From the NCBI GenBank assembly GCA_963792415.1, contig CAWBVY010000001.1:62025-126024 (forward strand): DNA of 64,000 nucleotides, written 5' to 3'. A program made the translations under genes and the position numbers. This DNA comes from Candidatus Deferrimicrobiaceae bacterium. Lineage in GTDB: Bacteria; Desulfobacterota; Deferrimicrobia; Deferrimicrobiales; Deferrimicrobiaceae. Positions 7,716 through 56,656 of the stretch are shown piece after piece (position 1 is the first letter of the stretch; each line of letters starts with the position of its first letter). The notes beneath the pieces were generated by a model. It saw nothing but the letters and a program-made list of their open reading frames with translations, was not told the origin of the DNA and did not search any database.

Positions 7716-7776
7716 GAAACCTTCCTTCCACCGCGTGGAATAACCTATAAGACTATAGGCAGATCGGGAACGGCGC

Positions 7777-8835
7777 TCAACCCCTTTTTCCCCCGGCAGC
7801 GATCCGCAATTGCCCGCAGGCGGCGCGGATATCGGCGCCCCTCCGCTCGCGGGTGATCGTCTGGACCCCTCCCGCGATGAGAATCTTCCGGAACCGGATC
7901 AGCGTTTCCGCCTCCGGCGCCCGGTGCGGCGACCCTTCGTGCGGGTTGCAGGAGATGAGGTTGACCTTGATCCGCCCGCCGCGGAACAGGCGGGAGAGCG
8001 CAAGGGCGTCCTCGGCCGAATCGTTCACGCCCGCCAGCAGGACATACTCCGCGGACACCTTTCGCCCGCTTTGCAATGGTATCCGCCGCATCGCGGCGAC
8101 GACCTCCTTCAGCGGATATTTCCGGTTGACCGGCATCAGGAGGGAACGGAGATCGTCCCGGGCGGCGTTGATCGAGACCGCGAAGCTGACGGGGAATCGC
8201 AGCGCGAGCGGGAGCATCTCCGGAACGATCCCCGCCGTGGAGACGGTGACCCGCTTGCCGGAGATGCCGAACCCGAACTGCGAAAGGAGGATCCCGATCG
8301 CCCGCGAAACTTCCGGAACGTTCAGCAGCGGCTCCCCCATTCCCATGAAGACGACGTTCGACAGGCGCTCCCCCCGTTCCGCAAGTCGCTTCGCGGCGAA
8401 ACAGGCCTGCTGGACGATCTCGGCGGAGGTCATGTTCCTCTGGAAGCCGGCTTCGCCGGTCGCGCAGAAGCCGCACAGGAGCGGGCACCCCACCTGGGAG
8501 GAGATGCACAAGGTGCGCCGCCCCTCGTCCGGGATCAGGACGCTTTCGACCGCCTCGCCGTCCGCGAGCCGGAAGAGGTACTTCTCCGTCCCGTCGGAGG
8601 AGATCTCGACGCGCTCCGCCGTGAAACCCGAAATGCGGCACGACGCCGCGAGGATTCCCCGCAGCTCCTTCGACAGGTCCGTCATCGCGGCGAAGTCGCC
8701 GGCATGTTTCTGATAGATCCAGCGGAAGAGCTGCCGGGCGCGGTACCGCTCCTTCCCCCACCGGGATAGGAACTCCTCCAGCTCGGGGAGCGTCATCCCC
8801 TTCAGATCCATCCGTTCGGCACTCACGCCCGTCAT
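7777..8835 (-). CDS. rlmN: 23S rRNA (adenine2503-C2)-methyltransferase RlmN (radical SAM)
   Basis: 352 aa with CPLLCGFCATG radical-SAM motif and an RlmN/Cfr family profile. Confidence 0.9.
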   Translation of the reverse strand: MTGVSAERMDLKGMTLPELEEFLSRWGKERYRARQLFRWIYQKHAGDFAAMTDLSKELRGILAASCRISGFTAERVEISSDGTEKYLFRLADGEAVESVLIPDEGRRTLCISSQVGCPLLCGFCATGEAGFQRNMTSAEIVQQACFAAKRLAERGERLSNVVFMGMGEPLLNVPEVSRAIGILLSQFGFGISGKRVTVSTAGIVPEMLPLALRFPVSFAVSINAARDDLRSLLMPVNRKYPLKEVVAAMRRIPLQSGRKVSAEYVLLAGVNDSAEDALALSRLFRGGRIKVNLISCNPHEGSPHRAPEAETLIRFRKILIAGGVQTITRERRGADIRAACGQLRIAAGGKRG

Positions 8836-8928
8836 CGTTTCACTTTACCACTGCCAAACGCCTGCCGGGACGACGCTTCTCCGAAGGGGGGCTCCCCGCT
8901 CGCATCCGGGACTCCCCCTAGGCTGCGC

Positions 8929-9038
8929 CGCCTCGGAGGGCGGGGCTCCGTTCGTGGCTCGCCGTGCGGTGAACCTGCACGGCTGCGCTTTACCTCACTG
9001 CGCCCCCCTCCTGCGGCGACTCCGCCGGACCCTCCCGT
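8929..9038. repeat. Intergenic structured repeat, module 1, copy A (110 bp).
   Basis: 96% identical over 110 bp to 40893-41002. It contains hairpins CGGAG-GGCGGGG-CTCCG and GCCGTGCG-(A/G)TGAACC-(C/T)GCACGGC. The A/B difference in the second hairpin turns a G-C pair into a G-T pair. Confidence 0.8.
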
Positions 9039-9066
9039 TCCGTACGCCGCACCGTGGAACCCCCCG

Positions 9067-9138
9067 TGTGCCCCCCGTTTATCCTACAGCGGGGGTACCC
9101 CAGGGAGCGCTATTCGTATGGGAGTGGGGTGCGCTCAC
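9067..9138. repeat. Intergenic repeat, module 2, copy A (about 70 bp, contains palindrome GGGGTACCCC).
   Basis: About 85% identical to the reverse complement of 41021-41090. Relative to module 1 the orientation is opposite in the two copies. Confidence 0.75.
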
Positions 9139-9146
9139 CTCTGCGG

Positions 9147-9186
9147 AAAAAAGCCCGGGTTGCGTTCCCGCAACCCGGGCTTATTT
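9147..9186 (-). terminator. Rho-independent terminator of icd; symmetric, so potentially bidirectional.
   Basis: AAAAAA-GCCCGGGTTGCG-ttcc-CGCAACCCGGGC-TTATTT. On the minus strand this is a 12-bp GC stem followed by UUUUUU, 20 nt after the icd stop. Confidence 0.75.
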
Positions 9187-9205
9187 CGGCAAGATTGGCG
9201 ATCGG

Positions 9206-11491
<2,286 letters not shown>

Positions 11492-38972: not shown

Positions 38973-40009
38973 GCCTCCCCGCGACCCTCTCTCCTCCACG
39001 GAAGGCGGTCATTCTCCTCTCGGGGGGGCTCGACAGCACCCTGGCGGCCCGCATCGTCCGGGACCAGGGGATCGAGCTTCACGCGATCCATTTCACCTCG
39101 CCGTTCTGCACCTGCTCCCACAAGGGCCCGGGGAACGGGAACGGGTGCCGCTCGGCGGCGCAGGAGGTCGCGGTGGGGATGGGGATCCCGATCCGGACCG
39201 TTTCGAAGGGCGAGGAGTACCTCGAGATCGTCAAGCGCCCCCGGCACGGCCGGGGGTCGGCGATGAACCCGTGCATCGACTGCCGGATCTTCACCCTGCG
39301 GAAGGCGAAGGCGTTCATGGAGGAGATCGGCGCCTCCTTCCTGGTCACCGGGGAGGTCGTCGGGCAGCGGCCGATGTCCCAGCGGGACGACGCGCTGCGC
39401 GGCATCGAGAAGCACAGCGGATGCGCGGGGATCATCCTGCGCCCGCTTTCCGCCCACCACCTCCCCCCCTCGCTGCCGGAGCGGGAAGGCTGGGTGGACC
39501 GGGAGAAACTGCTCGCGATCACGGGGCGCTCCCGCAAGGAGCAGATCCGGCTCGCGGAGGAGTTCGGAATCGGCGACTACCCGTGCCCCGCGGGGGGATG
39601 CATGTTGACCGACCGGACCTTCTCCCTCAAGGTGCGGGATCTCCTCGACCACCACCCTTCCTTCGGGATGCACGAAGTCCTCCTCCTGAAGGCGGGCCGC
39701 CATTTCCGCGTTCGGGGGATCCGGGCGATCGTGGCGAAAAGCGAGGGGGAGAACCGCCGGCTCGAGGCCCTCTGCCGGGGGAGGGACACCGTCTACGTGG
39801 CGCACAGCCACCCGGGCCCGTCCGTGACGCTCCTGGGCGGAAGCGAGGAGGAACGCCTCGATCTGCTCTCCCGGATCTTCACCCGGTACGGCAAGGCTGG
39901 GTCGGTCGGTTCCTACGAAATCCGGGAGATCGCGCCCGGCGGGGAGCGACTCGTGACCGTGCCCGAAAACCCGGACTTCGAGGAGGTCGGGCGTGGACTC
40001 CTCTGCTGA
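38969..40009 (+). CDS. PP-loop ATP pyrophosphatase, ThiI-like adenylation domain, without THUMP or rhodanese domains; it has CxxC and CPxxxC motifs plus an uncharacterized C-terminal domain of about 120 aa.
   Basis: SGGLDS PP-loop. …NPCIDCRIFTLRKAKAFMEEIGASFLVTGEVVGQRPMSQ…ILRPL…DYPC… is colinear with the ThiI PP-loop domain. ATGA overlap with the E1 gene stop. Confidence 0.65.
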   Translation: MSLPATLSPPRKAVILLSGGLDSTLAARIVRDQGIELHAIHFTSPFCTCSHKGPGNGNGCRSAAQEVAVGMGIPIRTVSKGEEYLEIVKRPRHGRGSAMNPCIDCRIFTLRKAKAFMEEIGASFLVTGEVVGQRPMSQRDDALRGIEKHSGCAGIILRPLSAHHLPPSLPEREGWVDREKLLAITGRSRKEQIRLAEEFGIGDYPCPAGGCMLTDRTFSLKVRDLLDHHPSFGMHEVLLLKAGRHFRVRGIRAIVAKSEGENRRLEALCRGRDTVYVAHSHPGPSVTLLGGSEEERLDLLSRIFTRYGKAGSVGSYEIREIAPGGERLVTVPENPDFEEVGRGLLC

Positions 40010-40880
40010 CAAACGGAACGGCGCCCCGACGCCGGACGACCTTCGCCGCTACGAGGCGTTGCTCGAGGAGCTCCGCCGGATGGGGTCGGCCGTCGTCGCC
40101 TTCAGCGGCGGGGTGGACAGTTCGTTCCTGCTGCACGCAGCGAAGGCGGCGATGGGAGACCGGGTCCTGGCCGTCACCGCGACGTCGCCGACGTACCCCC
40201 GCTCCGAGCGGGAGGAGGCTTCGCGGCTCGCCCGCTCGTGGGGCGTGGCGCACCGTCTCGTCGAGTCGAACGAGCTGGAGATCCCCGGCTTCTCCGCGAA
40301 CCCTCCGGACCGGTGCTACCACTGCAAAAAGGAGCTGTTCGGGATCCTCGCCGGGATCGCCCGCGAAGAGGGGTACGCGGCCGTGTGCGACGGATCGAAC
40401 GCCGACGACCGGCACGACTTCCGGCCGGGGCGCCGCGCCGCGAAGGAGCTCGCCGTCCGCAGCCCGCTGCTCGAGAACGGACTGGGCAAGCCGGCGATCC
40501 GCCGCCTGAGCCGGAGCTTCGGTCTCCCCACGGCGGACCGCGGTTCGTTCGCGTGCCTCTCCTCGCGCTTCCCGTACGGAACGACGATCGACGAGGAGTC
40601 GCTGCGACGCGTGGAGGCGTGCGAGGAGGTGCTGCGGGGGTTCGGATTCCGGCAGTTCCGGGTGCGCGTCCACGGCGCGGTGGCGCGCATCGAAGTGGGG
40701 ACGGACGAGATCCCGCGCCTCTTCGAGCCGGAGATCTCCGGGGCGATCCACGATCGGTTCCGGGAGAACGGCTTTCTCTACGTCTCCGTGGACATCCGGG
40801 GGTACCGCACGGGTTCGATGAACGAGGGGCTGCCGGCATCGACCCTGGGACTCGTCGCAGGACCGCCCGAAGATCTGTAG
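39993..40880 (+). CDS. LarE-family PP-loop ATPase (TIGR00268 sulfur insertase), three-Cys [4Fe-4S]-type
   Basis: FSGGVDSS PP-loop. …ACLSSRFPYGTT…FRVRVHGAVARIEVG… matches LarE. The Cys in CYHCK plus ACLSSR indicate the Fe-S-dependent, non-sacrificial class. GTG start with a GAGGAGG RBS. Confidence 0.8.
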   Translation: MDSSADKRNGAPTPDDLRRYEALLEELRRMGSAVVAFSGGVDSSFLLHAAKAAMGDRVLAVTATSPTYPRSEREEASRLARSWGVAHRLVESNELEIPGFSANPPDRCYHCKKELFGILAGIAREEGYAAVCDGSNADDRHDFRPGRRAAKELAVRSPLLENGLGKPAIRRLSRSFGLPTADRGSFACLSSRFPYGTTIDEESLRRVEACEEVLRGFGFRQFRVRVHGAVARIEVGTDEIPRLFEPEISGAIHDRFRENGFLYVSVDIRGYRTGSMNEGLPASTLGLVAGPPEDL

Positions 40881-40892
40881 GTGAGGCTCCAT

Positions 40893-41002
40893 CGCCTCGG
40901 AGGGCGGGGCTCCGTTCGTGGCTCGCCGTGCGATGAACCCGCACGGCTGCGCTTTACCTCACTACGCCCCCCCTCCTGCGGCGACTCCGCCGGACCTCCC
41001 GT
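40893..41002. repeat. Intergenic structured repeat, module 1, copy B (110 bp), immediately after the LarE-like stop.
   Basis: See copy A at 8929-9038. Confidence 0.8.
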
Positions 41003-41020: not shown

Positions 41021-41090
41021 GCGGCGCACCCCACTCACCTACGAAATGCGCTCCCTGGGGTACCCCCGCCGTAGGAAGAACGGGGGGTAC
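41021..41090. repeat. Repeat module 2, copy B, in inverted orientation relative to copy A; overlaps the last about 18 codons of mogA.
   Basis: Reverse complement matches 9067-9138. It contributes the aberrant MogA tail …GGDCTPRSSYGGGTPGSAFRR. Confidence 0.75.
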
Positions 41091-41568
41091 AGTCGCCGCC
41101 TTCGCCGCGGATCTTTTCGATCGCGTGGGGGAGGGCGGGAAGAAGAACCGCCAGGTTCTCCGTGGCGCCGCCGGGGCTCCCCGGCAGGTTGACGATCAGC
41201 GTCTTCCCGCGGATGCCGACCACGGCGCGGGACAGCATCGCCGCGGGTACCCGCTTGAGGCTTTCCGCCCGCATCGCCTCCGCCATCCCGGGTACTTCCC
41301 GGTCCAGGATCTCCCGGGTGGCGTCCGGCGTGACGTCGCGCGGGTCGACCCCCGTTCCCCCGGTAGTCACGACCAGGTCGAGCTCGAGCGCGTCGCAGAA
41401 GTGGAGAAGGGCGCGGCGGATGAAGGAAACCTCGTCGGGGATCACCACCTGCTGCGCGATCTCCGCGGGAAGCGACCGGAGCATCTCCGCCACGGCGGGA
41501 CCGGAAGCGTCGGGACGCTCCTTCCGGAACGACCGGTCGGACATGGTGATCACGGCGGCGCGGAACAC
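41035..41568 (-). CDS. mogA: Molybdopterin adenylyltransferase MogA/MoaB family
   Basis: 177 aa with …AAVITMSDRS… and the TTGGTG motif. GTG start with a GAGGGG RBS. The C-terminal about 18 aa are encoded by the repeat element. Confidence 0.85.
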   Translation of the reverse strand: MFRAAVITMSDRSFRKERPDASGPAVAEMLRSLPAEIAQQVVIPDEVSFIRRALLHFCDALELDLVVTTGGTGVDPRDVTPDATREILDREVPGMAEAMRAESLKRVPAAMLSRAVVGIRGKTLIVNLPGSPGGATENLAVLLPALPHAIEKIRGEGGDCTPRSSYGGGTPGSAFRR

Positions 41569-44628: not shown

Positions 44629-46709
44629 TCCTCCTCCTCTTCCCCCATCTCCTTCTTCGACTCGGCGATCACCTTCTCCGCGATGACGGCCGGGGTCTCC
44701 TCGTAGTGTGACACCTTCATCGTAAATTGTCCGCGCCCCGAGGTGATCGAACGGAGATCGGACGAATAGCGGAGGACCTCCGCCAACGGCACCTGGCACC
44801 GGACGATCTGGCTCTTCCCGAGGGCGTCCACCCCAAGGACCCGTCCGCGGCGCCCGTTGAGATCCCCGATGATGTCCCCGACGTTCTCCTCCGGGATGAC
44901 GACCTCCATCTCCGCGATCGGCTCGAGAAGGACCGGCTTGGCGGCCAGCGCCGCTTTCTTGAAGGCGAGGGACCCGGCGATCTTGAACGCCATCTCGGAG
45001 GAATCGACGTTGTGGAACGAGCCGTCGAAGACGGTGGCCTTCACGTCCACCACCGGGTATCCCGCGATGACCCCCTTGCCCATCCGCTCCACGATCCCCT
45101 TTTCCACCGCCGGGATGTATTGGCGCGGGATCGACCCGCCCACGATCCCGTCCACGTACTCGAACCCCTTCCCGCGCGGCTGCGGCTCGAGGCGGATCCA
45201 GCAGTCGCCGTACTGCCCGCGGCCGCCGGTCTGCTTCTTGTGCTTCCCCTGGGCTTCGGCCTTCCCCTTGAGCGTCTCGAGGTAGGCGATCTTCTGCGTG
45301 CGCAGCTCCACCTCGACGCCGTACACGCGCTTCAGCTTCTCGACGGCCACCTCGACGTGGGTCTCCCCCATCCCCGCGAGGATGAATTCGTTCGTCTGGG
45401 GATCCTTGCGGAAACGGAGGGTCGGGTCCTCCTCGATCATCCGGGAGAGGGAGCTTCCCAGCTTGTCCTCGTCGTTGCGCGTCTTCGGACGGACGGCGAA
45501 GGAGATGACCGCCTCCAGGGGGGACGGCCGCTCGAAGACGATCGGGGCCTTCGGATCGCACAGGGTGTCTCCCGTGGAAGTCTCCTTGAATTTCGCCACC
45601 GCGACGATCTCCCCCGCGGAGGCCGACCCGAGCCCCTTCTGCTTCTTCCCCTCCAGCCGCAGAATCTGCCCGATCCGCTCCACCGCGTCCTTGCTCGAAT
45701 TCAGCGGGGACATGTCCGGCGTGAGCGTGCCGGAGAAGATCTTGAAGATGGAGAGCTTCCCCGCGTACGCGTCCGCCAGCGTCTTGAAGACCTGGCCGGA
45801 GAACGGCGCGTTCACGGAGATGGGCCGGTTCTCGGCGGCCTTCTTCTTCGGGTTGGTCCCCTCGACCTCTCCCCGGTACGAGGGATCCGGAAGGGCGAAG
45901 TTGACGAGGTCGAGCACCGGCTGGATCGCGATGTTGCGCAACGCGGAGCCGTAAAGGACCGGGAGGAACCGCATCGCCCGCACCCCCGCGCGGAAACCGG
46001 CCCGGATCTCCTCGTCCGTGAGGGCGGTCCCCTCGAGGAACTTCTCGATCAGCGCGTCGTCGGACTCGGCGCACGATTCGACGAGCTTCTCCCGGGCGCT
46101 CGAGGCATCGGCGGCCAGGTCGGCGGGGATCTCCTGGAGGGTGAACTCGCCGGTGTCGCCCTTGTACACCATCGCCTTCATCCGGAACAGGTCGACCACG
46201 CCGCGGAACCCGGCCTCCTTCCCGAGCGGCAGCTGCACGGGCACCGCGGGCACCTTCAGGATGTCGGCGATCTCCTCGACCGCCTTCGCGGGGTCGGCGC
46301 GCTCCCGGTCCATCCTCGAAATGAAGGCGATCACCGGGACGTCCGCCGCCCGCGCCAGGTTCCACATCTTCTCGGTCTGGACCTCCACGCCGGAGACGGC
46401 GTTCACGACGAGGATCGCGCCGTCCAGCACCTTGAGGCAGGACCGGGTGTCCGCCTCGAAGTTGATGTAGCCGGGGGTGTCGGCGAGGGTGACCTCGACC
46501 TTGTCCCAGGCGTAGTGATGGAAGGAGGTGCTGATCGTGATCTTCCGCCGGATCTCCTCCGGGTCGTAGTCGAAGTTGGAGCTCCCGTCGTCCACCTTGC
46601 CCATCCTGTCCGTCGCCTTCGCGTTGAACAGAAGGGCCTCCGCCAGCGTCGTCTTTCCCGCTCCTCCGTGCGCGATGATGCCGACGTTCCGGATCTGCTG
46701 GATATCCAC
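44625..46709 (-). CDS. Elongation factor G family translational GTPase (EF-G paralog)
   Basis: 694 aa with G1 AHGGAGKTT, DTPG, NKMD and EF-G domains II-V. Divergent from canonical fusA (AHGGAGKTT rather than AHIDAGKTT). GTG start with a TAGGAGG RBS. Confidence 0.85.
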   Translation of the reverse strand: MDIQQIRNVGIIAHGGAGKTTLAEALLFNAKATDRMGKVDDGSSNFDYDPEEIRRKITISTSFHHYAWDKVEVTLADTPGYINFEADTRSCLKVLDGAILVVNAVSGVEVQTEKMWNLARAADVPVIAFISRMDRERADPAKAVEEIADILKVPAVPVQLPLGKEAGFRGVVDLFRMKAMVYKGDTGEFTLQEIPADLAADASSAREKLVESCAESDDALIEKFLEGTALTDEEIRAGFRAGVRAMRFLPVLYGSALRNIAIQPVLDLVNFALPDPSYRGEVEGTNPKKKAAENRPISVNAPFSGQVFKTLADAYAGKLSIFKIFSGTLTPDMSPLNSSKDAVERIGQILRLEGKKQKGLGSASAGEIVAVAKFKETSTGDTLCDPKAPIVFERPSPLEAVISFAVRPKTRNDEDKLGSSLSRMIEEDPTLRFRKDPQTNEFILAGMGETHVEVAVEKLKRVYGVEVELRTQKIAYLETLKGKAEAQGKHKKQTGGRGQYGDCWIRLEPQPRGKGFEYVDGIVGGSIPRQYIPAVEKGIVERMGKGVIAGYPVVDVKATVFDGSFHNVDSSEMAFKIAGSLAFKKAALAAKPVLLEPIAEMEVVIPEENVGDIIGDLNGRRGRVLGVDALGKSQIVRCQVPLAEVLRYSSDLRSITSGRGQFTMKVSHYEETPAVIAEKVIAESKKEMGEEEEE

Positions 46710-46749
46710 TCTGACCGTCCTCCTAAAGGGCGTATGTTCCGCGGACTAA

Positions 46750-46913
46750 GTGTTGCGTTTCATAAATTCGGTTGCATTCGAGGCCCGCTGCATCCGCCCC
46801 GGCTTCGTTGCGCTCCCTCACCGTACTTGCCCAGTACGCCTCGGTCGCGACGCCTTGCCGGATGCGGCGCATCGACCCTCTCGGTGCGACACCGTATTTA
46901 TGAAACGCAACAC
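46750..46913. repeat. 164-bp imperfect palindromic element with 22-bp terminal inverted repeats (21/22 matching; 17 outermost bp perfect).
   Basis: GTGTTGCGTTTCATAAATTCGG … CCGTATTTATGAAACGCAACAC. The interior is partly self-complementary (GCATCCG/CGGATGC and others). It lies between the coaX 3' end and the EF-G paralog start. Confidence 0.7.
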
Positions 46914-46927
46914 TTCGCTCCCACGGG

Positions 46928-47695
46928 TCAGGAAAGGTTCCTCTCGTATATAATACGCAGCCCCTCGAGAGTCAAATTCTCATCGATTACGTTGATTTTT
47001 TGCGTCTCGGCGGCGATCGTCCGCGCGAGCCCCCCGGTGGCGATCACCAGGGGGTCGAGGCGGACCTCCTTCCGGATCCGGTCGATGATCCCCTCGACCA
47101 TCGCGACGTACCCGTAGAAGAGCCCCGACTGCATCGCCGCCACCGTGTTCTTCCCGATGACCGTGGCGGGCTTGACGATCTCGATCCGGGGAAGCTTCGA
47201 GGCCTGCCGGAAGAGGGCCTCGGCGGAGATGTTCACCCCGGGGGCGATCACGCCGCCCATGTAGTCCCCCGTCGAGGACACGTAGTCGAAGGTGGTGGCG
47301 GTTCCGAAGTCGACGACGATGGCGGGCCGATGATGCTTCGCGAAGGCCGCCACGGAGTTGACGATCCGGTCCGCCCCGACCTCCTTGGGGTTGTCCATCT
47401 TGATCGAGATCCCCGTCTTGATCCCGGGGCCCACGATCATCGGCGTCAGGCCGAAGTACCGCTCGCACAGCTCGATGATGGTGGGGGTGAGCGGCGGGAC
47501 CACGGAGGCGATGATGATCGCCTTGATCTCCCGGGACGAGAAATCGCTCGCGTCGTAGAGGTTCCGCAGAAGGATCCCGTACTCGTCGCTCGTCTTCTCC
47601 CGGTCGGTCCACACCCGCCAGTGGTGGAGAAGGGCATCCCCCTCGTAGACCCCGAGGACGGTGTTCGTGTTCCCAACGTCGATCACAAGGAGCAT
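46928..47695 (-). CDS. coaX: Type III pantothenate kinase
   Basis: 255 aa starting [12 protein letters not shown]…, with the canonical CoaX/Bvg-accessory fold motifs. Confidence 0.9.
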
Positions 47696-52282: not shown

Positions 52283-55200
52283 TCATGGTCCCTTCCCTTC
52301 CTTCGCCTTCGCCGTCATCGTCTCTTCCAGGAGCGCCTGCGCGGTCTCCAGCCGCTTCCGGATCGGAACCGCGAGGTCCGCGGGCCCCTTCTCGTCCTCG
52401 AGCCGGTCCAGCGCGCCGGCGTACCGGTCGAGGGACCGTTCGTAGAACGATCGCGCCCGATCCCGCAACGCCTCCTCGTATCCATCGCGGTCGTCCCCTT
52501 TCAGACCTTTCGGCCGCTGGGAGGCGAGGATCGCCTTCCCGTACTCCACGAGGAGATCGCCGGATAGAAGAGAGGCCTGGAGCGCCACCTCGAGAGGGGC
52601 CTCGCTCTCCGCCTTTTCGAAGTCGCCGAGAGCCCGCCGGAAGAACCGGTCCTTGATGGCGAGACTCTTCTCGAGGGGGACACGGAGGGGCGTCTTGCGG
52701 AACTGTTCGGCCCAGTTCTCCCCGACGGCGATGCGAACCTTCCCCGCCAATTCCGCGAACTCCTCGGGCGCCTCCGCTTCCACGCCCGCGTCCGCTTTTC
52801 GCAGCCCTTCCTCCATCAGGCGGATCGACGCCTTCGTCTCCCCCCGCCGCCAGCCGGCCAGCCCCGTGTACAAGGTGGCGTACGTCCACTTCCAGCGTGG
52901 GTCCGCGTACCGCGCGCGATAGGCATTGAAGCGCTTTTCCGCCGCCCCGGGAGGGCCGTGCTCTTCCGCGAGGCGCGCGGCGTGGAAGAGGAACCGCGGC
53001 GCGGCCTCGCCCTTCGGGAACCTCTCCGCCACGGCCTCGTAGAGTTCCCCGGCCTCGGCGAACTCCCCCTTCTCCTCGAAGAGGGGGCCGACCACGCTCG
53101 CCACCTCCACGGTTTCCTCCCTTCGGGGAAACTCTTTCCGGAAACGGAGGCCGGAACGGATGGCCCCTTCCGGATCCCCCCCCTTTGCGTACAACCGCAT
53201 CGCCCGGAGCAGGTAGATCGGGACCTCCGGCGCCCCGGGGAAACGGATGGAGACCTCCTCGAGCACGGCCGCCGCGCCCGACAGGTCTCCCGCGGCCTCC
53301 TTTCCACCCGCCTCCTTCAGGGAGGAGAGGAGATAGAGATCCTTCGCCCGGGCGCCTGCGCCGGCCCCGACCGAGGGGTCCGAAAGGACGACCGAAGACC
53401 CGCTCCTCGCGGCGACCACATTCCCCTCGAAGAGGGCGGACTCGGCCAGAACCAGGCGAGCCTGGGCGGTCTGCGCCGGGGTGGCGTACCGGCTCCTCTC
53501 GACTTCCGCCGCTACGCGCCGCGCGCGATCATTCTCCCGGGCCGACAGGAACGCGCTCGATGCCCGAAGCCCGAGGGAGGCCGACTTTTCGGAGGGATGT
53601 TCCTCGAGAAGAAGCAGGATGGCGTATTCCGCGCCCCCGGCGGGCGTCTCCTTCCTCTCGTACCCGGCGATCATCGTCTCCGCGTACAGGACGGCCGCCC
53701 GCTCCCCGGTGGCGTCCGACCTCCGCTCTCCCACCAGTTTTTCGAGGAGCAGCACCCCGCCTTCCCGGTCCCCCGAGCCGAGGAGAGCGATGGCCCACTT
53801 CAGGCGAAGTTCCCCATCCCCGTCCGACCGGTCATCCCCCTTCACCAGGAAATACTCCCTCGTCAATGCGGCGGACGAGGAAAGCGCCGAGCGTTCCCCG
53901 GAGCGGATCCCCTCGTCGAATTTTTTCCCGGCGAGGGTCCTGAGCATTGCAGCCAGTTCCTTTGCGGTCTTCTCTCCGACCGGGGCCGGCTGCGACCGTG
54001 CCCAGGCCGAATCCGGTCCGTACTTCCCGCGCAGGGTCAGGGCGCGGTCGAGCGCCTCCCTTTCCCGCCCGACCCGCAGGAGCGACTCCACCGTCTCCAT
54101 TTCGAGGGCCGCAGCGTTCGCGTCCGACGGGAATCGCCGGGCCGCGACGTCGCGCACTTCCGCCGCCCGCAAGGCCTCGCCGCGTTTCTCCTCGGCCTCC
54201 CAGAGGGCGGCGAGGAGGACCTTCCCGCCGCACGTCCCGGCGTTCACGGGGGGGTACGCGTCCAGCCGTTCCAGGGGCGCCTCCCTCCATGCGCGGACCG
54301 AAAGGGAGACGACCTCCCTTTCGAAGGGCGACGGGACACCGCAGGGGAACGAGGGATCGGAAAGGGGTCGGGACAATTCCCGGAGCGCCCCGCCGGCATC
54401 CCCGGACTGGAACCGGACCCAGGCCAGCATGTACCTGGCGACGGCGGAAGCGTCCGGGTTCCCGGCATCCGAGGCCGCGCGGTACCGTGAGATCGCCGCC
54501 GCGGTATCCCCGGCCAGGAGCGCCTCGTGCCCGAGGCGGACTCCGATCACGGCGGAGAGCGGAGAGGCGGGGTACTTCTGGAGGTACTCCCGCGCGGCGG
54601 ACCCGGCGCCCGGGTCTTTCACGGCCAGCCCCAGGGCCGCTCGCAGGTAGAGTCCCTCCTCCCGTCTCGCCCCGGAAACCCCTTCCCGCGGGAGGAGCGG
54701 GAGAACGCGCGCGATCAACTCCTTCTCCTTCTCGTCGGCTTCCGTGCCCGGATACCGTGTCCACCGGTCCCTTCCCTCGGAAAGAACGGAGCCGATCCCG
54801 ATGGCGACGTCGGGCGCGTCCGCCGGCGCGAGGCGGTCGCCGGTCAGGAGGGAAACCGCGCGTCCGAGGGCGGCGAGGGATTCCCCGTGGGCCGGCTCTC
54901 CCGGCTCCAACCGCAGCCGGCGGGCCTGTCCGATCAGGGCGTCCGCCAGCTGACGGTCGACCACGGCAAGAAGGGCGAGCAACTCCGGCTTCCTCCGCTC
55001 CCAGGCGGCGGCCCGCTCCCTTTCCTCCAGGGTTCGCACGACCGGAAGGAGCGCGGTCACGCGGCCGTCGGCGTACGCGATCGATTCCCGCATCACATGG
55101 TCGAGGGGATCCTCCGCCGGCTCCTGCTTCTTCCTCAGGATGTCGAAGTACTGCTTCGTGAAATCCCGCGTTTCGGCGGCCATGGACCGGATCTTGTCCA

Positions 55201-56656
55201 GCTCGTTCAGGAAGAGTCCCACGTCCTTCAGGAGTCCGGGGGCGGTCCCGTCCCTGCCGGTCTCGATGGTGGCTACGGTCGCATCCCGCCGCTCCCGGAT
55301 CCGCTCCCGGAGAAGGTGGATCTCTTCCTGGCTCTTTTCCAGGCGCGTGAGGCGGCGGTATCGCTGGATCGGGTGGCCGAGGTTCTGGAGGGTATCGAGC
55401 GTGGCGGCCATCCGCTCCACCAGGCGGTCGACCTCGATGCCGTCCAGGGACACCTCCTCGATCCTCCGGACGATCTCCGCGATCTCCTCCGCGGTGAGGA
55501 ACCGGAGACCCTCGGGGGACGGCGTGTCCGCCGCTGCCAGGGAGACCGTCCGGTCGGCAAAGAGCATGCCGACCAGGAGTTCCACCACCTCGGCGCGCGC
55601 CGACGCGTCCGGCCCGGGCTCCCGCCAGGAGAGTTCCTGCCGGAGGGCCCGCAGCATCTCCATCTGAAGCCGGAGGGACTCGACGGTTTCGGAACGGCCC
55701 GACGGCTCGGAGGAAGGAGGCGACGGCACGGACAATGCGTCTTCCAGCTCCTTTCCTGCCCGGGTCAGGCGGTCGACCGCCGTCTCGTCGCGCCCGCTTT
55801 CCCTTGCGAGCCCCCCGAGAAGGAGGAGGAACCGGACCCGGTCCTCGAGGGGCCGCCCGGCGATCATCTCGGCCGGCAGATGGTCGAGGGCATGCACGGA
55901 ATTGTCCCCGGCGGCGGCCAGGCCGATCCGGTCCAGCGGGTTCTTCTCTTTCCACAGCAGGGCCTCGAACAGTGGCACTGCCTCGGGGCCGCGTCCGGCC
56001 GCAAGCAACACTTCCGCCCGCGATCTCGATGCCCTCGCCGCAAGAAAGTCGCTCCATTCGCTCCTCCCGGCCTCTTCTTCCACGCGTTGGAAGAGGTTCA
56101 GCGCCGTCGAGGTTTCCCTCCCCTCGGAGGCGATCTGGCCGAGGGAGTACAGGGCGAGGAGCCGGTACGGCTCTTCCGTTCCGACCTGGGCCAGGATGGC
56201 GGAGGCATCCCCCAGCCGTCCCCGGATCCGCCGCAGCCCCGTGCCGTAGGAATACAGGATCAGGGGCGTCCGGATCCCGCTGCGGATGGCGGTCTCGCAG
56301 ACCGCGACGAGGCGTTCGGGATCGTCGTATCGTCCCTGCGCGCTGACGACTTCATCGAAGAGCGGCGCCGCCGCCGTCGCCGGGAACACGCCCAGGCCGA
56401 CCCTCCGTTCGAGAAGCGATGCCGCTTCCGCAAGGAGCCCCAGGGACATGTATCCCTTGAAAAGGGAGCGGGTGCCGTCGATGGTCACCGCGTCGGACGC
56501 CTCGAGACGTGCCATTTCGGTGAGGGAGACGCCGGCACTCGCCGGGAACGGGATGGCAATAACCGAAAACAGGATCGCGCAGGCGAGGAAAGAGAGGAAG
56601 GGTCGTCCGGCGGCTATGGGGGAGAGGGTCGTTTCACGTTTCGAATTGGATTTCAT
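52283..56656 (-). CDS. Very large (1457 aa) secreted TPR/alpha-solenoid protein
   Basis: Signal peptide (…FLACAILFSVIAIPFPASAG). Continuous non-biased alpha-helical repeat sequence over 4.4 kb. GAGG RBS. Confidence 0.7.
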   Translation of the reverse strand: MKSNSKRETTLSPIAAGRPFLSFLACAILFSVIAIPFPASAGVSLTEMARLEASDAVTIDGTRSLFKGYMSLGLLAEAASLLERRVGLGVFPATAAAPLFDEVVSAQGRYDDPERLVAVCETAIRSGIRTPLILYSYGTGLRRIRGRLGDASAILAQVGTEEPYRLLALYSLGQIASEGRETSTALNLFQRVEEEAGRSEWSDFLAARASRSRAEVLLAAGRGPEAVPLFEALLWKEKNPLDRIGLAAAGDNSVHALDHLPAEMIAGRPLEDRVRFLLLLGGLARESGRDETAVDRLTRAGKELEDALSVPSPPSSEPSGRSETVESLRLQMEMLRALRQELSWREPGPDASARAEVVELLVGMLFADRTVSLAAADTPSPEGLRFLTAEEIAEIVRRIEEVSLDGIEVDRLVERMAATLDTLQNLGHPIQRYRRLTRLEKSQEEIHLLRERIRERRDATVATIETGRDGTAPGLLKDVGLFLNELDKIRSMAAETRDFTKQYFDILRKKQEPAEDPLDHVMRESIAYADGRVTALLPVVRTLEERERAAAWERRKPELLALLAVVDRQLADALIGQARRLRLEPGEPAHGESLAALGRAVSLLTGDRLAPADAPDVAIGIGSVLSEGRDRWTRYPGTEADEKEKELIARVLPLLPREGVSGARREEGLYLRAALGLAVKDPGAGSAAREYLQKYPASPLSAVIGVRLGHEALLAGDTAAAISRYRAASDAGNPDASAVARYMLAWVRFQSGDAGGALRELSRPLSDPSFPCGVPSPFEREVVSLSVRAWREAPLERLDAYPPVNAGTCGGKVLLAALWEAEEKRGEALRAAEVRDVAARRFPSDANAAALEMETVESLLRVGREREALDRALTLRGKYGPDSAWARSQPAPVGEKTAKELAAMLRTLAGKKFDEGIRSGERSALSSSAALTREYFLVKGDDRSDGDGELRLKWAIALLGSGDREGGVLLLEKLVGERRSDATGERAAVLYAETMIAGYERKETPAGGAEYAILLLLEEHPSEKSASLGLRASSAFLSARENDRARRVAAEVERSRYATPAQTAQARLVLAESALFEGNVVAARSGSSVVLSDPSVGAGAGARAKDLYLLSSLKEAGGKEAAGDLSGAAAVLEEVSIRFPGAPEVPIYLLRAMRLYAKGGDPEGAIRSGLRFRKEFPRREETVEVASVVGPLFEEKGEFAEAGELYEAVAERFPKGEAAPRFLFHAARLAEEHGPPGAAEKRFNAYRARYADPRWKWTYATLYTGLAGWRRGETKASIRLMEEGLRKADAGVEAEAPEEFAELAGKVRIAVGENWAEQFRKTPLRVPLEKSLAIKDRFFRRALGDFEKAESEAPLEVALQASLLSGDLLVEYGKAILASQRPKGLKGDDRDGYEEALRDRARSFYERSLDRYAGALDRLEDEKGPADLAVPIRKRLETAQALLEETMTAKAKEGKGP

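Follow-up and report, generated by a model that had tools for sequence, protein, structure and literature searches.

The 64,000-nt stretch analyzed here (the window; contig CAWBVY010000001.1 of a Candidatus Deferrimicrobiaceae bacterium) contains two loci, A and B, that are built from the same two short modules, M1 and M2. These are probably two loci of a lineage-specific, nested, non-coding and hairpin-forming mobile repeat system in a Deferrimicrobium-like (MBNT15/Deferrimicrobiota) genome. Both modules are dispersed across related genomes and have filled and empty orthologous sites, M2 nests within M1 and follows a junction rule, the stems carry compensated changes, and neither module has coding capacity. 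M1 is a non-autonomous imperfect palindrome of ~107 nt, found between genes in either orientation. M2, which appears inverted at locus B, is an independent, oriented insertion of a second element and not a switch.

A repeat search of the window returned a direct repeat (8920-9008 and 40884-40972, 93%) and an inverted repeat (9067-9134 and 41024-41091; 68 nt, 88% complementary). For M1, BLAST of locus against window gave 96.2% identity over 104 nt (E = 1e-43); for M2, it aligned 64 nt of the opposite strand at 89% (E = 5e-15). The 64 kb contain no third copy of either module. The refined limits of M1 are 8921-9026 (106 nt) and 40885-40991 (107 nt), with 100 of 107 positions identical. Those of M2 are 9069-9131 on the plus strand and 41027-41089 on the minus strand, with 55 of 63 identical. 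An earlier note on this DNA had described two look-alike loci with a near-identical first module and a second module reverse-complemented in copy B, and both descriptions hold. The repeats it placed are real, but their extent was drawn too small: the composite at locus A spans ~8874 to 9147. Locus A lies between the 3' end of the gene for monomeric isocitrate dehydrogenase (IDH) and the start of rlmN. Locus B lies between convergent genes for a PP-loop ATPase and for MoaB/MogA. The closest named relative of this MoaB comes from a 'Candidatus Deferrimicrobium' metagenome-assembled genome (MAG), a genus assigned to the phylum Deferrimicrobiota, formerly MBNT15.

Further members of the M1 family were sought with an exact M1 22-mer in one genome per species. 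The search, which the earlier note had recommended, found many, contrary to its refuting condition that there be none: the 22-mer matches at least 119 stretches in about 27 MAGs, nearly all labelled Deferrimicrobiaceae, Deferrimicrobium or 'Deltaproteobacteria CSP1-8'. Each MAG holds from several to at least 14 M1 loci. Several short contigs stop inside the repeat. The M1 and M2 motifs gave 0 matches in viral contigs, and a literature search on Deferrimicrobium returned no description of such repeats in the lineage. Relatives' loci that were compared with the window are denoted by L-numbers. Contigs of MAGs labelled as other phyla, JBLMYI (L015, L032; Actinomycetota) and DATHRT (L020, L033, L048, L055; Limnocylindria), carry typical Deferrimicrobiaceae/CSP1-8-type M1. 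These are likely to be mis-binned contigs or mislabelled bins rather than cases of horizontal spread.

M1 copies were placed in register (131 copies), and 78 uninterrupted copies were aligned, giving the consensus GGCTGCGYCGCCTCGGAGGGCGGGGCTCCGTTCGTGGCTCGCCGTGCGRTGAACCYGCACGGCTGCGCTTTACCTCACTGCGCCCCCCCTCCTGCGGCGACTCCGCC. The arms are imperfect inverted repeats of ~25 nt with conserved mismatches, and the asymmetric core of ~70 nt is almost invariant (alignment columns 26-98). The predicted folds contain the central hairpin (GCCGTGCG...CGCACGGC) as well as the closing helix, both of which had been proposed from the sequence. Single-sequence folds give z-scores of -2.3 to -4.0, similar on both strands. 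Double-sided changes occur at 6 of the 10 outer-helix pairs. Across the 78 members, 69 double-change cells were counted compared to 27.9±4.6 after shuffling; none of 500 shuffles reached 69, and slid controls of the outer helix were far lower. The earlier note had read one difference between copies, a G-C pair becoming G-U-compatible, as favoring selection on RNA. The T/C change is real, with pair 55-63 being G·U in 53 copies and G-C in 25, but it is not evidence for RNA: family mismatches that would wobble on the plus strand (G·T, 80) are balanced by those that would wobble on the minus strand (A·C, 82). The left-arm sequence is GCGTCGCC in roughly half the copies and GCGCCGCC in the others; the T/C position involved covaries with the opposite arm and so is no fixed tag.

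M1 copies fall into length classes of 107 nt (70 copies), 107 nt plus one M2 (17), plus two M2 (3), and plus a 185-nt insert of a further module, M4, together with M2 (9). None of these length-classed copies has an interior of the size of an open reading frame (ORF). Three internal sites of M1 accept inserts (61-250 nt), and M1 so interrupted still propagates. In some copies the left arm is a perfect reverse complement of its right counterpart, and in others the flanks lengthen the palindrome by 9-10 bp; examples of such copies are L018:7532-7645, L119:71-184, L042:1200-1330, L044:2434-2560 and L035:4640-4800. In L044 the extension duplicates the end of the upstream gene, its last codons and stop codon. 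Such exact or extended arms suggest template-switch correction or extension of quasipalindromes.

M1 and M2 had been taken for parts of a single composite. They are two different elements, and M2 either nests in M1 or lands beside it. The M2 consensus, TGCCCCCCGTTCTTCCTACAGCGGGGGTACCCCAGGGAGCGCATTTCGTCCGGGAGTGGGG, is 61-63 nt long with or without a terminal YG, and contains two short G/C hairpins joined at GGGGTACCCC. Near-full copies number 41. Within M1, M2 is always co-oriented and occupies the sites GGCTG^CGCTTT, CACTG^CGCCCC and GGCTG^CGYCGCC; M1 has three CTG^CG sites, so that M2 is often nested in it. Outside M1, it occurs at YG^YGC sites in other repeats and in unique DNA, in unrelated contexts. 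Twenty distinct junction contexts define a core of 60-61 nt, with G at position -1 in 17, TG at -2/-1 in 12 and YGC at +1 to +3 in 13. The hairpins, CCCCCC..GGGGG and CCCCA..TGGGG, are subterminal, and the inverted ends amount to only ~6 nt. One subfamily has exchanged CCCCA/TGGGG for CCCCG/CGGGG, and one copy CCCCC/GGGGG for CCCTC/GAGGG. Read on the M2 strand, the flanks in the window are CCCCGTG^...^TGCGCTC at locus A and GGCGACTG^...^TGCGCCG at locus B. Both obey the asymmetric rule, which indicates independent oriented insertion rather than a flip.

Comparison of orthologous sites reveals both modules in filled and empty states. No exact record of the window's RlmN or IDH turned up; a metagenome scan with RlmN gave 80 loci, three of which were close enough for use. 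L122 (RlmN 87% identical) has the locus A composite but lacks M2, and the IDH-rlmN spacer of L120 and L121 (89%) is free of both modules. At locus B, the two genes of L200 lie 9 nt apart without M1, and its moaB end (...GGCGGCGACTGCGCCCCCCTGGTGTAG) reads GGCGGCGACTG^CGCC exactly at the M2 site of the window, which is therefore empty. L204 has M2 at the same nucleotide (GACTG^) together with an M1 remnant, and L202 has half an M2. Elsewhere, M2 is the sole difference between L008 and L040 and between L072 and L085, and the orthologous M1 copies of L034 and L060 differ by an M2 inside. The filled and empty pairs of M2 are explained by plain insertion with at most 2 nt of ambiguity and no target duplication longer than 2 nt. 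In L099 an M1 closely follows the downstream end of rlmN, a position without M1 in the window. In the IDH-rlmN spacer of the same relative (L099:5140-5480), M1 lies opposite to the window orientation while the outer left module is unchanged, and this spacer has therefore acquired or rearranged M1 independently. The locus B unit is flanked by a possible TTAC/CTAC direct repeat. The suggestion of a mobile element resembling repetitive extragenic palindromic (REP) sequences or miniature transposable elements with inverted repeats (MITEs) is thus borne out, with both modules multi-copy and dispersed.

The gene context of M1, counted from crude gene calls, is intergenic in nearly all copies and mostly just downstream of genes. 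M1 lies between convergent genes in 22 copies and between divergent genes in 3; relative to tandem neighbors, 20 copies are sense and 30 antisense. It often lies 0-30 nt before or after a stop codon, and within 30 nt the two orientations are about equal (19 versus 17). M1 strongly avoids divergent promoter regions, a sign of some constraint. Between the window and L122, rlmN is 88.0% and IDH 88.4% identical and the non-repeat spacer 68-76%, compared to 107 of 107 positions in M1.

We propose that M1 and M2 would be copied in trans by an enzyme that is encoded elsewhere in the genome and recognizes their folded hairpins. For M2 this would most likely be an HUH/Y1 single-strand transposase of the IS200/IS605-RAYT type (RAYT, REP-associated tyrosine transposase), an idea based on oriented, sequence-specific insertion 3' of a short motif, the lack of target duplication, the subterminal hairpins and the small size. 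The mobilizer of M1 may be the same kind of enzyme or a transposase that binds terminal inverted repeats (TIRs). M2 landed at locus A within the composite's outer layer and, independently, on the other strand of locus B in the 3' end of moaB, which is why it looks inverted there. Inserted elements would be co-transcribed with neighboring genes as stable stem-loops and could remodel gene ends.

Several observations weigh against a mobile repeat system of this kind. A phmmer search (E ≤ 10) with an IS200 TnpA sequence found no IS200-like TnpA among 6252 ORF fragments from 863 kb of 8-kb tiles around M1 copies, and megablast on the same 863 kb detected no repeats of ≥350 bp at 97% identity. ORFs between inverted M1 pairs are housekeeping genes by Pfam (RlmN, YjeF, M48, S16). 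With no candidate enzyme in the 863 kb and the motifs absent from viral contigs, the mobilization mechanism is offered as a hypothesis. For M1 neither a target site nor a duplication could be delimited, its edges being blurred by further palindromic layers, and the block that holds M2 at locus A has 14 nt beyond M2 proper and is not a clean M2-only event. The M1 core shows 0-2 changes at orthologous loci whose flanks, mostly coding, are 74-89% identical, a degree of conservation that points to constraint over and above selfish copying. Around a near-invariant core of ~70 nt the arms show compensated variation, the opposite of a classic MITE or REPIN (a hairpin-forming REP pair). Simple within-genome homogenization fails to explain the identity of window copy A to its L122 ortholog, since these two share polymorphic states that differ from those of copy B. 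On the other hand, architecture differs at many 'orthologous' loci, which implies frequent turnover or re-insertion and weakens the case for site-by-site purifying selection. It is conceivable, if improbable, that the M1 core is a host-maintained functional module and M2 among the smallest known sequence- and orientation-specific insertion elements (61 nt, CTG^CGC), the two forming a new REPIN-like replicator system of the Deferrimicrobiota. If so, the M1 core might act as a folded RNA or DNA element at 3' ends, or serve a domesticated recombinase as its substrate or guide. ORFs bracketed by inverted M2 pairs are likewise housekeeping genes only (Pfam).

Selection for a host function also underlies the possibility, which we regard as doubtful, that M1 with or without M2 is a functional structured RNA family, either a small RNA or a cis-acting 3'-untranslated or intergenic element whose fold and core are kept for the host. 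The compensatory changes in the outer helix, folds stabler than those of shuffled sequence, the proximity to stop codons with avoidance of divergent promoters, and a core more conserved than coding DNA and spacer (in L122 and in the other orthologous pairs) would all agree with an RNA. However, M1 lies both in sense (20 copies) and in antisense (30), in about equal numbers among stop-abutting copies, and the balance of G·T and A·C mismatches favors neither strand. With both orientations in use and the mismatches balanced, nothing points to the dedicated small RNA that the earlier note had entertained. No conserved promoter or terminator flanks M1, inserts are tolerated at the three internal sites, and architecture varies between orthologous loci. 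Rfam gave no match at the gathering threshold in the window, and permissive scans that covered both loci and 46700-46960 yielded only noise. Neither M1 nor M2 has an ORF, transposase or Rfam family tied to it. We also think it unlikely that M1 is a MITE of the classic TIR type, derived by internal deletion from an insertion sequence (IS) with a DDE transposase and moving by cut-and-paste with a short target duplication such as TA. The inverted arms, the length of ~107 nt and the long stem-loop fit such an origin, as do the intergenic location and in-frame ORF fusions known from Correia, ERIC, RUP and RPE (PMC2229807), the TA that precedes some copies (TAGGCTGCG, TAAGCTGCG) and the possible direct repeat around the locus B unit. 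Yet no consistent target duplication or TA end was found across M1 copies, no ORF-sized interior or long repeat that might be a parent IS occurs in the loci searched, and a variable arm with a conserved interior is the reverse of a MITE. A search for a-left abutting a-right (the layers that flank M1, described below), as in an empty palindromic M1 target, was too noisy to give anything clear.

The opposite strands of M2 relative to M1 at loci A and B, and its palindromic center GGGGTACCCC, had also prompted the view that M2 is an invertible segment, flipped in place by a site-specific recombinase as in a phase-variation switch. This is very improbable. A phase-variable segment has the same flanks in both orientations, whereas the flanks of M2 at A and B are unrelated to each other and follow M2, obeying YG^..^YGC on the M2 strand; a flip in situ would leave flanks reverse-complemented relative to M2, which is not seen. 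The empty L200 and filled L204 sites amount to plain insertion at CTG^CGC in moaB, L122 carries the locus A composite with no M2 at all, and copies inside M1 are always co-oriented. No recombinase gene lies nearby, the neighbors being IDH, RlmN, the PP-loop ATPase, MoaB and a GGDEF protein. That the two copies reflect chance or a private segmental duplication, as their number in the 64-kb window might suggest, is hardly credible given more than 130 copies in about 27 genomes and the in-window E values of 1e-43 and 5e-15. A number of narrower candidates were discarded. The modules are dispersed repeats with empty orthologous sites, which removes both attL/attR ends of a 32-kb island and a 32-kb inversion between the inverted M2 copies. 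Integron attC sites were dismissed because copies lie outside cassette arrays and lack a GTTRRRY core, and a small ORF or type I toxin in M1 because of an unconserved start codon and frame-shifting indels. Template or variable repeats of a diversity-generating retroelement, a retron, a ribozyme and a tRNA-like origin have no Rfam or ARAGORN support.

As a mobile repeat system, M1 and M2 would form a lineage-specific addition to the known hairpin-forming mobile repeats, with REPIN/BIME-RAYT systems, ERIC-type MITEs and, for M2, miniature IS200/IS605 elements as the closest apparent analogues. The system resembles bacterial interspersed mosaic elements (BIMEs). M1 shares with REPINs a length of ~100 nt, an extragenic, palindromic and hairpin-forming character, and many copies that are lineage-specific and vertically persistent (bioRxiv 10.1101/2021.07.10.451892). 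Both systems are mosaics of short modules in either orientation with no transposase inside the element, and both have lineage-specific consensus arms and a preference for gene 3' ends. REPINs have conserved REP arms and a highly variable spacer (bioRxiv 10.1101/2021.07.10.451892), whereas in M1 the arms vary and the core is invariant. Each REP has a GTAG or CGTC tetranucleotide at one end (PMC3733652), and CGTC is only polymorphically present in M1. REPIN systems include a single-copy RAYT gene flanked by the repeats in the same genome; no RAYT turned up in the 863 kb of sequence surrounding M1 copies. REPINs reach hundreds of copies per genome, compared to at least 10-17 exact-core M1 copies per MAG in fragmented MAGs, and have so far been described mainly in proteobacteria and not in Deferrimicrobiota.

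ERIC/IRU, Correia/NEMIS, RUP, RPE and YPAL repeats are, like M1, imperfect palindromes (100-170 bp) that form a long stem-loop, and ERIC-type repeats are similarly intergenic, co-transcribed and found in either orientation, with RPE and ERIC fusing in frame to ORF ends (PMC2229807). They differ from M1 and M2 in having no sequence relationship and belonging to other phyla, and no TA target duplication is seen here; the M1 core is moreover conserved above coding DNA, and the M2 insert is itself free-standing with its own target rule. Wilson and Sharp are said to have described, in 2006, longer ERIC variants that arose through ~70 bp insertions at fixed internal sites, a parallel to M2 in M1. 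Measured against bacterial MITEs in general (~100-200 bp; PMC2229807, Table 1), M1 has the expected size and inverted repeats, and M2, at 61-63 nt with ~6-nt inverted ends, falls below. The target duplication listed in the same table, often a terminal TA, is absent from M2 (≤2-nt ambiguity), while in-frame fusion to ORFs, a known property of bacterial MITE-like repeats (PMC2229807), is seen in the MoaB tail made by M2 and in the RlmN tails of L099, L120 and L122. No full-length IS relative was seen in the compared loci, where M1 has no ORF-sized interior and long repeats are absent. Miniature IS200/IS605 elements (palindrome-associated transposable elements, PATEs), which transpose as single strands by 'peel and paste' with a bias to the lagging-strand template, resemble M2 in having subterminal hairpins, no TIR beyond ~6 nt, no target duplication and a single orientation directly 3' of ...CTG. 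M2 differs in being only 61 nt long and in having no TnpA/Y1 gene in the 8-kb tiles. Its hairpins lie nearer the ends than in IS608.

Two features stand out, the very small, target-specific M2 and the unusually conserved M1 core. The analysis provides the anatomy of a previously undescribed repeat system in an uncultured phylum (MBNT15/Deferrimicrobiota). Such repeats explain why MAG contigs of the lineage frequently break at these sequences, and they account for odd and variable moaB and rlmN gene ends, which is relevant to annotation. If confirmed, oriented 61-nt insertions of M2 at CTG^CGC would represent a compact natural substrate for enzyme discovery. The conservation of the M1 core above adjacent coding DNA bears on whether REP- and REPIN-like repeats owe their persistence to being replicators, host tools or both.

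Gene ends built from repeats were found in moaB of the window and in rlmN of relatives. By translation, M2 sequence supplies the final 18 codons and the stop of moaB in the window (MoaB/MogA C-terminal tail CTPRSSYGGGTPGSAFRR*, 41035-41089, minus strand), and the Pfam domain of the protein ends at residue 148. MoaB relatives are mostly 161-168 aa with ends of ...GGDCAP(LV/QH/RVG), and one of them, P0001, has the same M2-encoded tail. Without M2, the moaB ORF would read on into M1. Another hot spot of variation is where rlmN ends: after a conserved ...AACGQL, the tails differ between the window, L099, L120, L121 and L122. Pieces of M1, M2 or M3 (the TTCATAAAT module) encode the RlmN tails of L099, L120 and L122, and L121 has a short tail with M2 just past the stop. 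DNA at these rlmN 3' ends (L099:4089-4130, L120:2009-2130, L121:3538-3660 and L122:3119-3240) contains CTGCGC, the M2 target motif. The rlmN end of the window itself (7760-7800) is repeat-free.

The composite at locus A, between rlmN (7777-8835, minus strand) and the IDH gene (9206-11437, minus strand), can be resolved layer by layer on the plus strand. Its outer left module (CGCTTCTCCGAAGGGGGGCTCCCCGCTCGCATCCG, 8874-8908) is a dispersed repeat itself, present in L081, L118, L062, L082 and L077, and is 52/53 identical to L122. An 18-bp outer inverted repeat, part of another dispersed module, has its left arm in the first 18 nt of this stretch; its arms, CGCTTCTCCGCAGGGGGG and CCCCCCTGCGGAGAAGCG, are perfect in the L122 ortholog. 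A short layer termed a-left (GGACTCCCCCTA, 8909-8920) precedes M1 in many copies; the motif recurs as CCGGGACTCCCCCTTC, and its inverted partner GAAGGGGGAGTCCCGG is found at the right in other copies. M1 copy A (8921-9026) comprises the ~25-nt arms, central hairpin and invariant core, and its match to the orthologous L122 copy is interrupted by one indel in a C run. The right extension (GGACCCTCCCG...GGAACCCCCC, 9027-9065) is 84% identical to L122 and ends with CCCCCC, the first half of the outer right arm; GGACCCTCCCGT comes after M1 in many copies. A 75-nt block without counterpart in L122 (9066-9140) holds M2 copy A (core 9069-9129, TG to 9131) and splits CCCCCC^CTGCGGA in the alignment of the window with L122. 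CTGCGGA (9141-9147), the rest of the outer right arm, abuts the IDH terminator hairpin.

At locus B, M1 copy B (40885-40991, plus strand) begins 4 nt past the TAG stop (40878-40880) of the PP-loop ATPase gene (39993-40880, plus strand). Its right extension (GGACCTCCCGT, 40992-41002, plus strand) is a motif that also follows copy A and many family members. M2 copy B (41027-41089, minus strand) interrupts GGCGGCGACTG^CGCC within the 3' end of moaB/mogA (41035-41568, minus strand) and has the sense orientation to that gene.

Further layers extend the mosaic. Palindromic pairs around M1 include CCGGGACTCCCCCTTC/GAAGGGGGAGTCCCGG, CGGGAGGGTCC/GGACCCTCCCG and TTCATAAATACGGCAACG/CGTTGCCGTATTTATGAA. 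A third member of the system, M4, lies at 46748-46915 (plus strand) of the window as a core of ~115 nt (GCATTCGAGGCCCGCTGCATCCGCCCCGGC...GCCGGATGCGGCGCATCGACCCTCTCGGTGC) in a 25-bp, 96% inverted repeat (AAGTGTTGCGTTTCATAAATTCGGT/ACCGTATTTATGAAACGCAACACTT) with the TTTCATAAAT motif. The M4 core recurs as the 185-nt insert inside M1 in L013, L015, L042, L092 and L102, and BLAST found 24 M4 matches in the loci. An ARAGORN call of tRNA-Gly(TCC) at 54392-54477 (86 nt, minus strand) falls within a 1457-aa ORF (52283-56656, minus strand) and is probably a false positive. The IDH-rlmN spacer of L120 (500-640) carries a different hairpin (GGGGACATACC...GGTGTGTCCCC) with ~15-nt direct repeats (AGGCGCTTTCAGGGG) at both sides, and looks like another MITE-type insertion with a target duplication. 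In the window, a terminator-like bidirectional hairpin (AAAAAAGCCCGGGTTGCG..CGCAACCCGGGCTT, 9146-9187) follows IDH, and it is kept in L122 and L099 despite the repeat-rebuilt spacer around it.

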